From: a virus
DNA: 64,000 nt
Reading direction: 5' to 3' (one strand)
IMG/VR virus record: IMGVR_UViG_3300029910_000007
The translations under genes were made by a program, and so were the position numbers. The notes below the pieces were generated by a model. That model made no database searches, was not told where the DNA came from, and was given only the letters and a program-made list of their open reading frames with translations. Positions 8,690-12,749 of this stretch are shown here, piece by piece (positions within the stretch are counted from its first letter, which is position 1; each line of letters starts with the position of its first letter).

Positions 8690-9682
8690 ATGCTTGTCAC
8701 CAAAGAATTCGTCACAACCGTCCTATCCAGATTCTTGACAGAATCAGCTACAGAACAGGTCTCAGAACAGACTGATTTTGTCCGCAATAGTCTGTTCGAA
8801 GAAGCACCACACATTGACCCATCCCATGAAGGTCGTCTTCATAAGGCTCTAGGAATCCCTTATGGGCATAAAATTCCAGCGTCTGCTCTTAATAGAGCAA
8901 AGCACTCAAAGAATCCTCACATGCGCCAGATGGCTAATTTTGCAAAGAATGCAAAGCACTGGGACCATGATGTGAATGAAGATTTTAGACAGGGTGATGA
9001 CGTTCAATTTAACCATAATGGAAGAATGAAGCACGGTCGTGTAGTTAGAGTTGAAAAGAATCCTAGTGATCGTGGCTCATCATTTGCAGTTGTCAATCAT
9101 GGTGGTTATGAATCTGCAAAGGTTCCTTTTCATAAATTGCAAAAAGTAGAGGGAATGCCTCTTCTAGAAGCTGTCTCATTCAACAAAGGTGATCGAGTCG
9201 TTCCGAATGAAGGCCCACACGCCGGTCATGAACATGAAATCATCCACAAACATCCAGATGGAACTTTCAATATCAAGCCTACTAGAATTCCAGCACATAA
9301 GATTTCCTATCGTCTAGGTGCTGCCAGATGTCATGCTGGACAGATTGAACATATTGATGAGGCTGACTACATTGGTGTGAGTGAATCTGTTGATCCAGAT
9401 ACCACCCATCCTGAAGTTCATAACTTCAGACGTGAAATGAGAAATCAGCATCCTGAATATCTTCATTCCAGCCAAAAGACTGCTCTAGTACATTCTCACA
9501 CATGGACAAATCCACACAACGGACATGAGTTTAGCCTGACTCATAAAGGACCACAATTTGGTGGTCATGCTACTCACTTCGACTTTGTTCATAGTGGTGG
9601 TAACTATGATATTGGTCATTTACCAGCCACATCTGACCATATGTATAGTGCATTCAGACAAGGTGCTAATAACGTTACATGA
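8690..9682 (+). CDS. His-rich hypothetical protein, possible head-internal protein
   Basis: 330 aa; N-terminal KEFVTTVLSRFLTE resembles the N-terminus of head-module ORF 61728-62555 (REYVTSVLNRE); many His clusters. Confidence 0.6.
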   Translation: MLVTKEFVTTVLSRFLTESATEQVSEQTDFVRNSLFEEAPHIDPSHEGRLHKALGIPYGHKIPASALNRAKHSKNPHMRQMANFAKNAKHWDHDVNEDFRQGDDVQFNHNGRMKHGRVVRVEKNPSDRGSSFAVVNHGGYESAKVPFHKLQKVEGMPLLEAVSFNKGDRVVPNEGPHAGHEHEIIHKHPDGTFNIKPTRIPAHKISYRLGAARCHAGQIEHIDEADYIGVSESVDPDTTHPEVHNFRREMRNQHPEYLHSSQKTALVHSHTWTNPHNGHEFSLTHKGPQFGGHATHFDFVHSGGNYDIGHLPATSDHMYSAFRQGANNVT

Positions 9683-9692
9683 GAAATGAATA

Positions 9693-10247
9693 ATGGTAAT
9701 GCGCATCAGTCCAGAACCCGGAGATTGGCTTCTTAATAGCACAATATTTCACAATGCTATTGAAGCTATCTTGAATCAAATTAGAGTTGATCGAACAAAA
9801 GAAATTCCTGACGTGGCTGGATATTCCAACAATGGAAAAGTATTTTTCATCGATAGAAGGATGCCTCGTGGATACAAGAAGAATGGTCGAATCATTCTTA
9901 CAGACAGATTCCTGATTTGTCACGAAGTAATCGAAAAACTTCTATTGTCTACCTATCGACTCCCTTACCAATTTGGGCATCAGATTGCCTTGAGAATTGA
10001 GAGAGACTATGTCATCTCTGAGAGAGTGGACTGGAATGACTATAATCGATTTATGAATGTCTGGATCAAACACATTGGAAGTGATCCTGCTGGTGATGCA
10101 CCAAAACAACTGGATTTGGAACCTTACTATGATGAACATGATTTTAGTGATTTGAAGAAGATGCACAAAAGTTTGATCCTTCCGAAGAGAACTGATGTCA
10201 TTCCAGCCGGTCATGGTGTTGCTATTCATGGCAATCATGGAAATTGA
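9693..10247 (+). CDS. hypothetical protein
   Basis: 184-aa ORF in a co-directional array. Confidence 0.55.
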   Translation: MVMRISPEPGDWLLNSTIFHNAIEAILNQIRVDRTKEIPDVAGYSNNGKVFFIDRRMPRGYKKNGRIILTDRFLICHEVIEKLLLSTYRLPYQFGHQIALRIERDYVISERVDWNDYNRFMNVWIKHIGSDPAGDAPKQLDLEPYYDEHDFSDLKKMHKSLILPKRTDVIPAGHGVAIHGNHGN

Positions 10248-10279
10248 TAAATACAAAATCAATACAGGACCACAACAAA

Positions 10280-10786
10280 ATGAAGACTTTAGAGCAATTT
10301 GTACAGACAATCTCAGAGGATAACGGAACACTATCACCAGCTGCAGAAGGTGCTTCTCCGTTCAGAAATAAGCCTTCTAAAGGGAGATTCACTCGCTATA
10401 ATAAATTCAATGGTGTTGGTCGTCTTCCGGGTGTCAAAAGTAATGAAGTGAATGACTACGAAAAGCGTCTGGAAAGAGATGTTGATTCTGCTCGAAACCA
10501 GTTTGGAAGATTGGGTGAAAGTGAGTCTCATGATAAAAATAGAGAACTCATCCACGATCATGCTATACGCCGTTTATATCAAGCCGTTGACTCTCATAGA
10601 GCAGCAGTGAAAGCAAAATCGGAAAATGACACTAAAAATTATCATCGTGGTATGAGAGATTTTCATACTAATATGTACCACCATTTGGATAATAATGAAG
10701 TTTTGAGTGGGCGTCGTAACTATGAAGAAAAGATGGCTCATTTGGATGCTGCAGTCGATCATTCAGATAAAATTGGGACAGCATAA
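10280..10786 (+). CDS. putative internal (capsid-packaged) protein, His-rich paralog 1
   Basis: Starts MKTLEQFVQTISE, resembling the T4 internal-protein capsid targeting sequence MKTYQEFIAE; motif YHRGMRDFHTNMYHH is shared with 10792. Confidence 0.6.
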   Translation: MKTLEQFVQTISEDNGTLSPAAEGASPFRNKPSKGRFTRYNKFNGVGRLPGVKSNEVNDYEKRLERDVDSARNQFGRLGESESHDKNRELIHDHAIRRLYQAVDSHRAAVKAKSENDTKNYHRGMRDFHTNMYHHLDNNEVLSGRRNYEEKMAHLDAAVDHSDKIGTA

Positions 10787-10791
10787 TAAAC

Positions 10792-11124
10792 ATGAAAACA
10801 CTTTCCCAATTTCTCCAATCTATCACAGAGGATGTTGAGTTAGCTCAGCTTCATCCTCGTGATAGATCATCACCAAAGATTGACAATGATACTGCAATTG
10901 ATCATCTCTATCATGCTGTGAAATTTCATTCTGCTGCAGCCCAAGCCAAGAATGCTGGAAATCCAGAAGCATATCACCGAAATATGCGAGAACATTATGC
11001 TCATATGTATCTACATATGAAGCATTCACCACTCCATCAAGGTTTGGAATCCAGAACCATCAGTCGAAAGTATCTGGATTCTGCGTTGGGACACTCTACT
11101 GCTATACATACTGGACAATTTTAA
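10792..11124 (+). CDS. putative internal protein, His-rich paralog 2
   Basis: Starts MKTLSQFLQSITE; LYHAVKFHSAAAQAKNAGNPEAYHRNMREHYAHMYLH aligns with paralog 1. Confidence 0.6.
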   Translation: MKTLSQFLQSITEDVELAQLHPRDRSSPKIDNDTAIDHLYHAVKFHSAAAQAKNAGNPEAYHRNMREHYAHMYLHMKHSPLHQGLESRTISRKYLDSALGHSTAIHTGQF

Positions 11125-12417
11125 ATGAAGACAATCGGACAATTTCTCAATGAACAGCACGAACCTCTAGAAGAGACCTATTTTCTTCTGGAAGATTTCT
11201 CACATATTTCAGAAGAAGATTTGATCCTTGAGGACGATGAAGTTATATTTGAAGAAATGAATTTTGGTGATAGATTCGCTATGATGAATGAAGACGTTGC
11301 ACAGACTGAAGCTCATACCAATCCAAACTGGAGGGAAATGCGTGCTGGTGCCCAGAAGTATTTTTCATCCTCTACAGAACTTCAGGGACACATGCAGAAA
11401 GAAGCTGGAAAGATGCGTGCCAAAATCACAGGTCCAGAAGCATCCAATCCTAAACTCGCTAAGTCTGGTAAGTTTATGGGTAATGAAAAGTCCAATCCAA
11501 AATTTGGAAAATATGCCAAGAAAATTCCAATCTATAAGACACTCGGTGTTTCTCTAGCACCATCTACCATGTCTGGAATTGATACTTGTCCTGCTGCAAC
11601 ACCAGAATGTAAAGCTTCTTGTCTCGGAAAATCGGCTGGTCGTGCTGTCATGTCTGGAACCAGAAATGCTCGTATTGCAAAAACTCATTTTGCCATGAAT
11701 CATCCTGCCCACTTCTATGCTGGACTAGATAAGGAAATCACTGGTGCAAAAACTGCGGCTCACAAGGAAGGAAAGAAACTTGCTGTCAGATTGAATGTTG
11801 CTTCTGATATTCCACATGAACATCTTGCACCAGAACTTTTCAAGAAGCACCATGACGTTCAGTTCTATGATTATACAAAATTGTCTGGTCGAACCAAAAA
11901 CAAAAGTCTCCCTTCAAATTATCATCTGACTGTTTCTTCTACTGGATTAAACCACCCTACGTCCAACTGGCATCAGGTTAGACAGCATCTGGATAAAGGT
12001 GGTGTTGCATCCATGGTCTTTGCTGTCAAACAGGGACGAAGAGGCGCAGCCGATTCAGCACTCCCAAGTCATGTTCATGATGAAGAGACTGGAAAGAAAT
12101 ATAGAGTCATTGACGGTGATCCACATGATCACAGACATCTAGATAAGGCTTATAATGAAGTTCCTCATCATGAGGGCGTCATTGCTGGTCTTCGATTGAA
12201 GGGTGGTGGACCAAATCTAGAGCGTGCAGGAAACTTTGCAGTTCGTCCAGAAGCTGGTGGACACGTCGCTATTGCTCGTAAAGGTGCCTCACCTAAGAGT
12301 GAGCCACATCCAGCGGCTATGAACCACACAGCTGCTTCTATAGCGCCTTCTGTAGGTGTTCACAAACCTATCAAGCTACATGACTTTGTTGCTCAACATG
12401 GAACTGGATCAAGATGA
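11125..12417 (+). CDS. putative internal protein with Cys-motif enzyme-like domain
   Basis: Starts MKTIGQFLNE; acidic N-region; core DTCPAATPECKASCLGKSAGRA...VRLNVASDIP...YDYTK. Confidence 0.55.
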   Translation: MKTIGQFLNEQHEPLEETYFLLEDFSHISEEDLILEDDEVIFEEMNFGDRFAMMNEDVAQTEAHTNPNWREMRAGAQKYFSSSTELQGHMQKEAGKMRAKITGPEASNPKLAKSGKFMGNEKSNPKFGKYAKKIPIYKTLGVSLAPSTMSGIDTCPAATPECKASCLGKSAGRAVMSGTRNARIAKTHFAMNHPAHFYAGLDKEITGAKTAAHKEGKKLAVRLNVASDIPHEHLAPELFKKHHDVQFYDYTKLSGRTKNKSLPSNYHLTVSSTGLNHPTSNWHQVRQHLDKGGVASMVFAVKQGRRGAADSALPSHVHDEETGKKYRVIDGDPHDHRHLDKAYNEVPHHEGVIAGLRLKGGGPNLERAGNFAVRPEAGGHVAIARKGASPKSEPHPAAMNHTAASIAPSVGVHKPIKLHDFVAQHGTGSR

Positions 12418-12749
12418 AAACTTTACGTCAATTTTTAAATGAAAATGAAGCCTATGATCCACTTCCAGAACATATGAAGCATCTGGAAAAAGCCTTGGAT
12501 CATTTTAAAAATGCTCGATCTTATAGAATGCTTCATGATGAAACTACAATGCCACATGAAAAACAGACACACCATGATCTTCAACATGAAGAATTGGCAA
12601 AGCACCATTATCACATGAGAATGTATCATACAAAATCTCATATGCACGATGAAGTTGGCAACAAACGTCTAGCCGACCAACATCATGCTCGTCAGGCATG
12701 GCACAAATCATTGATTGGGAAGACATCATTTCAAGGATTTAAAGCTTGA
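12414..12749 (+). CDS. putative internal protein, His-rich paralog 3
   Basis: Starts MKTLRQFLNE; HHDLQHEELAKHHYHMRMYHTKSHMH; ATGA overlap with 11125-12417. Confidence 0.6.
   Translation: MKTLRQFLNENEAYDPLPEHMKHLEKALDHFKNARSYRMLHDETTMPHEKQTHHDLQHEELAKHHYHMRMYHTKSHMHDEVGNKRLADQHHARQAWHKSLIGKTSFQGFKA

Follow-up and report, generated by a model that had tools for sequence, protein, structure and literature searches.

The 64,000-nt stretch of IMG/VR virus record IMGVR_UViG_3300029910_000007 that was analysed here (the window, to which all coordinates refer) contains six co-oriented genes on the plus strand at 8690-12749, and five of the six encode proteins with an N-terminal leader of the type of the capsid targeting sequence (CTS) carried by the internal proteins of phage T4. 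The four downstream genes and their products are referred to as A to D; the upstream gene with a leader encodes a 330-residue protein (Table 1). An initial annotation, made from the letters alone, had described the interval as a tandem locus of tagged proteins. This description fits five genes, but a 184-residue gene without a leader lies among them. The four consecutive MKT-leader genes that it reported were found at 10280-12749 (+), each leader ending in [LI]-x-E. The boundaries of A to D are identical in public gene calls on contigs of ~158.5 kb; for protein A, the mechanical open reading frame (ORF) opens at TTG 10244, and the public gene calls use ATG 10280. A, B, D, the 330-residue protein, and the 184-residue gene product could not be assigned credibly to any family in Pfam, PHROGs, or NCBIfam, and a megablast search of the locus against 50,697 phage records returned no match.

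Table 1. Genes and signals of the candidate internal-protein locus and genes of the head module.
Feature	Position	Strand	Remarks
330-aa His-rich protein	8690..9682	+	18-residue leader MLVTKEFVTTVLSRFLTE at 8690-8743; candidate internal protein
184-aa gene	9693..10247	+	No leader and no family match; within the locus
ATAAATA, T4-late-promoter-like core	10247..10253	+	33 nt 5' of gene A; weak evidence
Protein A, 168 aa	10280..10786	+	Leader MKTLEQFVQTISE (10280-10318); residues 16-76 without counterpart in B; His-rich C-terminal module
Protein B, 110 aa	10792..11124	+	Leader MKTLSQFLQSITE (10792-10830); short linker; predicted three-helix bundle at residues 32-107
Protein C, 430 aa	11125..12417	+	Leader MKTIGQFLNE (11125-11154); acidic propeptide (predicted); GP88 domain
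Protein D, 111 aa	12414..12749	+	Ten-residue leader MKTLRQFLNE (12414-12443); 15.3% His
gp23-type major capsid protein	58196..59596	-	phrog_138
gp22-type scaffolding core protein	59687..61000	-	18 [LI]xE; presumed docking partner of the leaders
gp21-type prohead protease	61058..61765	-	phrog_207; enzyme expected to remove the leaders
275-aa basic protein, gp67/gp68 slot	61728..62555	-	N-terminus MANLLKVREYVTSVLNRE, resembling the leader of 8690-9682; 5.8% His
Gene in gp67/gp68 slot	62732..63442		Acidic; 11 [LI]xE; core-like
End of portal gene	63450..63908

Proteins A to D all open with MKT[LI]xQF[LV]. Their leaders close with [LI]-x-E at residue 13, 13, 10, and 10, respectively, the closing motif being ISE in A, ITE in B, and LNE in C and D; in the 330-residue protein, LTE closes the leader at residue 18. 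Among the ATG codons of all six frames in the 64 kb, only those of A to D open an MKTxxQF start. A loose CTS pattern, applied to the 537 Met starts of the window, matched 8, of which 5 belong to the locus. The nearest MKTxxQF look-alike in the window is an acidic 82-residue ORF at 23764-24012 (+), which begins MKTWFEFFVKLEE. It has the 13-residue leader format of A and B (aromatic residue at position 4, Phe7, and L-x-E at 11-13), and its product may be a further capsid-targeted protein outside the locus.

The leaders were compared with the N-termini encoded in the T4 genome (NC_000866). IPII and IPIII begin MKTYQEFIAE followed by Ala, as the initial annotation had stated for IPIII, and IPI begins MKTFKEFTSTTTPVSTITE, also followed by Ala. 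The first ten residues of IPIII are enough for packaging; within the T4 CTS, residues 4 and 7 have been shown experimentally to serve targeting, and residues 8 and 10 to serve processing (review of Black's work, PMC9026906). The leaders of C and D are in register with those of IPII and IPIII, having a hydrophobic residue at position 4, Phe7, Leu8, and Glu10. A and B agree with this pattern up to position 8 and then close at I-x-E13, like the longer IPI leader. Phe7 is invariant in A to D and in the 330-residue protein. At position 4, A, B, C, D, and the 330-residue protein have L, L, I, L, and T, respectively, where T4 has Y or F; judged by residue type, the change from T4 in A to D is conservative.

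The initial annotation had assigned the 330-residue protein a second type of N-terminus, an assignment that needs some adjustment. In its leader, K5-E6-F7 and the final LTE parallel T4 IPI (MKTFKEF...ITE), and by this alignment its N-terminus is also CTS-like, on the side of T4 IPI. The protein has a sole homolog, P0123, in which the leader is kept as MFLPKEYVTSLLSKFLSE. The same annotation had also claimed an N-terminus common to this protein and a head-module gene. The likeness itself is real and extends over ten residues (KEFVTTVLSR in 8690-9682 and REYVTSVLNR in 61728-62555), but it is too short for BLAST significance.

The window also encodes a T4-type head module, in which genes of gp20, gp21, gp22, and gp23 type were recognised by matches to phrog_138, phrog_237, phrog_207, and phrog_213. 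The major capsid protein (MCP) is 55-57% identical (tblastn) to those of T4-like cyanophages, Sinorhizobium phage phiM12, Stenotrophomonas phage DLP6, and Methylophilales phage Melnitz. The gp21-type protease is 34% identical to T4 gp21 (E 1e-29), and it keeps the motifs GELNHPP and GVSxRG (here GVSTRG). Two genes, 61728-62555 and 62732-63442, occupy the position of T4 gp67/gp68 between portal and protease, and neither is significantly similar to gp67 or gp68. On these homologies, this uncultured phage is a distant member of the T4 superfamily. No close relative was present in the phage collection, and in IMG/VR the MCP identity was at most 58%. The same locus was found on ~158.5-kb contigs from several metagenomes. 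The ends of these contigs differ in genome position, a pattern that a circularly permuted genome would produce. A transfer RNA (tRNA) cluster (375-5937) lies just 5' of the locus; in T4, ipI adjoins the tRNA cluster, and ipII and ipIII lie ~4.5 kb beyond the cluster's other end.

Protein C matched the Pfam family GP88 (PF17338) over residues 124-348 with 115.4 bits, against a gathering score of 24.4, and the GP88 model was matched by 51 of 51 aligned homologs. C155, C162, and C166, together with several His, Asp, and Arg residues, are invariant in protein C and 50 homologs. All six [LI]xE motifs of protein C lie in residues 1-43 (to 11253), one every 6-7 residues, and residues 44-430 contain none; the clustering had a P value of 0.002 when residues 1-61 were shuffled. 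In 101 GP88 homologs, the density of [LI]xE was 5.0 per 100 residues before the domain versus 0.40 inside it. AlphaFold, run with the 51-sequence alignment, gave a confident alpha/beta domain at residues 62-395 (11308-12309) and an acidic, low-confidence segment at residues 12-61. The motif pattern and the model suggest that in protein C an enzyme-like cargo is preceded by a leader and an acidic propeptide of ~60 residues with multiple sites.

More than 260 metagenomic homologs of protein C were found, at 40-64% identity. Their N-termini include MLRFKEHLIEKE, MLSFKEYIVECE, MKTFNQHIIEND, MIKFKQFLNE, MKKFATFIAEY, and MNPFRKNLVERF. Among 120 GP88 homologs, Phe4 was present in 74, Leu or Ile at position 8 in 75, and Glu10 in 70; the strict 10-residue leader pattern occurred at 39 of the 120 N-termini versus 1 of 793 internal Met positions. 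One subgroup (P0075, P0077, P0082, P0089, P0093, and others) has no CTS-type start and opens with a His/Lys-rich helical segment, MNLKKAKELYKFAHKHFKSQ..., which loosely recalls the His-rich module of A and B. Cultured phages contain only distant GP88 homologs, which were found in cluster-A mycobacteriophages, pelagiphages, and jumbo phages. The T4-type leader was absent from those whose N-terminus was examined or whose match lay near the genome start.

Several functional leads for the GP88 domain were followed and rejected. A PDB sequence search with protein C returned nothing, and a Foldseek search against the PDB gave insignificant TIM-barrel-like matches only, none with E below 0.04. A BFVD search returned other GP88 proteins only, apart from one entry labelled 'Gp37/Gp68-like' and weak radical-SAM-labelled matches. 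A radical-SAM-like or DUF5131 (Gp37/Gp68) reading was rejected because the invariant cysteines form C-x6-C-x3-C, not CxxxCxxC, and no fold match was found. The label 'minor head protein' on the Tunturi_5 GP88 homolog was uninformative, since that protein has no leader and no paper was found behind the annotation. A literature search on GP88/PF17338 found nothing relevant.

The leader was also found on proteins other than GP88 homologs. A degenerate DNA pattern for M-K-T-[ILMF]-x-Q-F-x-x-E matched at least 120 IMG/VR contigs. Among the 85 matches listed, which lie in 80 loci, 81 coincide with the start of an ORF that is 50 residues or longer, usually with an in-frame stop a few codons upstream, and almost all of the matches listed read MKTF.QF..E. 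In the matched fragments (L170-L289), MKTF.QF..E opens at least 100 otherwise unrelated ORFs of 51-433 residues. Homologs of gp23 or gp20 were carried by 11 of the 120 fragments, close to the share that such 9-kb pieces would show if every one came from a T4-type genome. One fragment (L224) has four genes with an MKTFKQFI.E leader and unrelated cargo. On a 146-kb IMG/VR contig (L007), approximately 12 leader genes are clustered at 3420-16667, with starts of the forms MKSF[LI]Q[HYF][IL]xE, MLSFRQYLEE, MDPIT[RK].L.E, or MNPFSKKLIE. Without their leaders, the proteins of this cluster are mutually unrelated except for one 38-residue stretch. Its cargo includes a GP88 homolog as well as proteins that weakly match a nucleotidyltransferase and the ART-PolyVal ADP-ribosyltransferase; the last of these recalls T4 Alt. 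On a 130-kb JGI contig, a GP88 homolog (MLGFKQYIVEKE) and a nearby 136-residue gene product (MLSFKSFIKEN) share a leader. The leader thus recurs on orthologs as well as on unrelated cargo. In the cultured far-T4 phage Melnitz, used as a control, the loose pattern matched 8 of 1523 Met starts, which were unclustered and included none of MKT type. As Melnitz has no recognisable leader set, the leader system is not universal among distant T4 relatives.

A further leader gene was seen in L182 (5135-5554, -), and also in L208 and L232, T4-like contigs in which it is conserved directly downstream of gp23. It encodes an RlpA/DPBB-like (lipoprotein A) domain, and its product may be a cell-wall-active protein loaded into the head.

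The initial annotation had listed three small paralogs with a His-rich module. A and B are indeed paralogs (BLASTP 2e-13), but D has no significant similarity to A or B (BLASTP E 0.44 and 0.017) and resembles them in composition only. The mature parts of C, D, and the 330-residue protein are unrelated to A/B and to one another. In BLASTP comparisons with T4 IPI-III, gp67, and gp68, any similarity of A to D was confined to the leader. Protein B matched only itself among 5.8 billion proteins, and a profile built from A and B retrieved only A and B among 1.84 billion representatives; on these searches, A and B are ORFans. In the AlphaFold model of protein B, the leader forms a helix and is joined by a short low-confidence linker to a three-helix bundle whose core has a predicted local distance difference test score of 80-94. 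Foldseek matches of B were rejected as a functional lead, being generic MIT-like three-helix bundles with E above 0.1.

The enrichment in histidine that the initial annotation pointed out was borne out by counting. His accounts for 6.0% of residues in A, 10.9% in B, 6.7% in C, and 10.3% in the 330-residue protein, and D has the highest content (Table 1); the long ORFs of the window have 3.1% on average. Among 110 IMG/VR leader-bearing examples, the median His content was 1.2%, and the proteins of the L007 cluster are mostly low in His. His richness is a peculiarity of the present phage, not a general trait of leader-bearing proteins.

We consider it likely that 8690-12749 is the internal-protein locus of a T4-superfamily phage and that its leaders are capsid-targeting sequences. 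The products that bear them are probably injected with the DNA. The capsid-targeting reading had been offered by the initial annotation, and every prediction of it that could be tested at the sequence level came out as expected: the head module is of T4 type, a gp21 homolog is encoded, the leaders are in register with those of T4, they are conserved at the protein level, they precede unrelated cargo (A and B excepted), GP88 homologs of other phages keep their pattern, and arrays of leader genes occur on other contigs. In the course of docking, cleavage, packaging, and ejection that we infer for the locus proteins, a propeptide of the form M-x-x-hydrophobic-x-[QE]-F-[LIV] plus [LI]-x-E would dock the protein on the scaffolding core during prohead assembly, the core being formed by the gp22-type protein together with the proteins in the gp67/gp68 slot. 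Once the shell had assembled, the gp21-type protease would cut after [LI]-x-E, and the mature cargo would then be free in the head and would leave it with the DNA at infection. The cargo set would comprise A and B (paralogous His-rich bundles of three helices), D, the 330-residue His-rich protein, and the GP88 protein C. By analogy with T4 Ip1-3 and Alt, this cargo would most likely act very early in the infected cell, to counter host defence or to take over the host.

Several observations speak against such an internal-protein locus. A to D have Leu or Ile at position 4, where T4 has Tyr or Phe, and Gln in place of Glu at position 6. The locus genes lie on the strand of the early and metabolic genes, and evidence for a late promoter at the locus is weak; the ip genes of T4 likewise lie among early-oriented genes. 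Once composition is taken into account, the scarcity of [LI]xE in the mature cargo falls short of significance (P=0.42), low Leu/Ile content being sufficient to explain it. In cultured phages, GP88 proteins are products of untagged genes of siphophages, podophages, and jumbo phages, so the GP88 domain is not intrinsically a virion protein. Lastly, the L007 contig, with its leader array, may not be T4-like.

Among the other explanations, the one that survives best accepts entry into the prohead and differs in what follows. The tagged proteins would be core or scaffold accessories or DNA counter-ions, like gp67, gp68, and IPIII, and not injected effectors; the His-rich helices would contribute to building the core or setting its size, or would neutralise DNA, and they would end up degraded or retained as structural components. 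The protein in the gp67/gp68 slot whose N-terminus is related to that of the 330-residue protein is His-enriched and basic, as this explanation would have it. Proteins A, B, and D combine small size and helical structure with a mildly basic pI of 8.1-8.9, and a further [LI]xE is present at residue 80 of A and residue 19 of D. However, ORFans such as A and B, without relatives among 1.84 billion representatives, are atypical of assembly parts and typical of arms-race cargo, protease motifs are few or absent in the folded parts, and protein C is enzyme-like. We regard this explanation as rather unlikely.

A second explanation denies any capsid role and takes the shared N-termini as the trace of tandem duplication or recombination of a mobile regulatory cassette or translation-initiation region. 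The genes are in tandem, A and B are true paralogs, and MK- starts are frequent in highly expressed genes. T4-type phages are also described as shuffling genes via promoter-proximal cassettes (PMC2839356). On the other hand, the leaders of A to D are written in different synonymous codons (AAG/AAA, ACT/ACA, TTA/CTT/ATC), and when the four gene starts were aligned from 50 nt before to 51 nt past the start codon, the DNA 5' of the codon showed no conservation. These differing codons and unrelated upstream DNA speak against the gene starts having been duplicated recently or supplied by a mobile regulatory cassette, and the pattern of substitution indicates that the shared N-terminus is selected as protein, not as DNA. 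Such an origin is further opposed by the cargo of C and D, which is unrelated to that of A and B, and by the occurrence of the leader pattern on GP88 homologs in distant contigs and on at least 100 unrelated IMG/VR ORFs; we give it very little credence. It is just as improbable that the leader is some other sorting or regulatory signal unrelated to the head (an amphipathic membrane helix, a degron, or a phage-chaperone tag). This reading can point to the predicted helical and amphipathic nature of the leader and to the early-oriented genes around the locus. Against it stand the register of the leader with the T4 CTS as defined by experiment, a matching gp21-type protease encoded by the same phage, the crowding of protease-type motifs in the propeptides of C and its homologs, and a sequence without a hydrophobic signal-peptide core.

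If the locus does encode injected internal proteins, its closest counterpart is the T4 system. In T-even phages, the internal proteins (Ips) have the leader alone in common, the gp21 protease removes it, and the cargo is variable (PMC3012670, PMC9026906, PMC12373910). Ip1-3 block GmrSD, and all three T4 Ips inhibit type IV restriction enzymes (PMC12373910). The described Ips are mutually unrelated (PMC12373910), so homology of the mature part to IPI, IPII, or IPIII is not strictly defining. The present locus resembles that of T4 in its MKT leaders of 10-19 residues with Phe7 and an aliphatic-x-Glu site, in its mutually unrelated cargo, in its place near a tRNA cluster and among early-oriented genes, in the accompanying gp21/gp22/gp23 module, and in the small cargo A, B, and D without detectable homologs beyond the present phage. 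It differs in that the mature parts have no similarity to those of T4, positions 4 and 6 of the leader have changed, the cargo is His-rich here and Lys-rich in T4, and one cargo is a 430-residue enzyme-like protein. No sign of hydroxymethyl-type DNA modification or of a GmrSD link was seen in the window, so the T4 target, GmrSD-type restriction of modified DNA, is not simply transferable. The thymidylate synthase of the phage is of ThyX type, and a link to DNA hypermodification was rejected for lack of evidence.

The best functional analogue of protein C is probably T4 Alt, a packaged, gp21-processed ADP-ribosyltransferase. Like Alt, protein C is enzyme-sized and is predicted to be loaded into the head, trimmed, and delivered with the DNA. 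The two differ in family, Alt having the ADP-ribosyltransferase fold and C belonging to GP88. They also differ in processing: Alt has a 7-residue N-terminal propeptide and C-terminal processing (PMC9026906), whereas C would combine a CTS with its acidic multi-site propeptide. Compared with the GP88 proteins of cluster-A mycobacteriophages, pelagiphages, and jumbo phages, protein C shares the family match and the invariant Cys/His/Asp set, but no T4-type leader was present in the cultured phages checked. In the giant phages SPN3US and phiKZ, many head-internal proteins are described whose propeptides are removed by a protease related to T4 gp21 (PMC5694885, PMC7411985). The present window, in contrast, belongs to a conventional T4-type genome of ~158 kb. 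To our knowledge, the giant phages use another cleavage motif and have no MKT..F leader.

In the searchable literature, CTS-like leaders were found described for T-even phages only. Some genome annotations of more distant T4 relatives carry the label 'internal head proteins', and we therefore do not claim the extension beyond T-even phages as new. For the present phage, such a locus is what T4-type biology would lead one to expect, and it introduces no new principle. What appears to go beyond the textbook case is the tagged GP88 protein with its multi-site propeptide in many environmental phages, the breadth of MKTF.QF..E in viral metagenomes, and the His-rich cargo. We propose, as a possibility that falls somewhat short of being probable, that GP88 proteins are a widespread, unrecognised family of capsid-preloaded enzymes of uncultured T4-type phages, provided with a CTS and a multi-site acidic propeptide and delivered with the DNA, and that MKT[FLI]xQF..E is a handle for retrieving hundreds to thousands of injected, likely anti-defence, effectors from metagenomes. 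Internal proteins that are injected are at work before the phage expresses its first gene. If the tag works alike in distant T4-type phages, leader mining would yield a cheap list of first-strike anti-defence candidates, and the uncharacterised GP88 domain would gain a biological context, namely delivery with DNA. More speculatively, the His-rich cargo could serve as pH-switchable DNA counter-ions or as metal-dependent inhibitors.

Some further features of the locus and its surroundings were recorded. The 184-residue gene sits between leader-bearing genes, and a gene of the same length also follows P0123 on a related contig, which suggests that the genes for the 330-residue and 184-residue proteins form a conserved pair. 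Both flanks carry accessory gene sets: 5' of the locus lies a gene for a TROVE/vWA-like 'RNA-binding protein' (DUF2828/DUF7788) at 6322-7722 (+), and 3' of it lie a ParB-like gene and a PAPS-reductase/DUF3440 gene at 12782-15091 (+). Inside the tRNA cluster, a permuted two-piece transfer-messenger RNA (tmRNA) gene was found at 1809-2066 (+) (Rfam RF04321, 82.7 bits; gathering score 47), for which ARAGORN predicts the tag peptide AAANDTSWDMALAA. Melnitz, which is T4-like with an MCP 55% identical, has an annotated tmRNA too. Among bacteria, alphaproteobacteria, some betaproteobacteria, and cyanobacteria have two-piece tmRNAs, and the gene may be a hint to the host.

Promoter signals gave little information on the locus. 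The gp23 gene has CATAAATAAA 40 nt upstream. In the window, ATAAATA was found 16 times versus 12.6 expected. An argument from late promoters was abandoned on statistical grounds, since neither TATAAATA nor ATAAATA is enriched, and scans for sigma-70 promoters and terminators gave background levels. Elsewhere in the window, four minus-strand genes (2063-2725, 3911-4729, 25896-26693, and 40123-40737) encode HNH, LAGLIDADG, and NUMOD3 domains, with a C2H2 zinc finger in 3911-4729, and their domain content suggests homing endonucleases. The starts at 2725, 4729, and 40737 are preceded by a near-identical cassette of ~70 nt, CATAAATAAAGGTGC..TCGCG..CTCTAC..TTAGGAG, with a T4-late-promoter-like core, which looks like a mobile cassette of promoter and ribosome-binding site.

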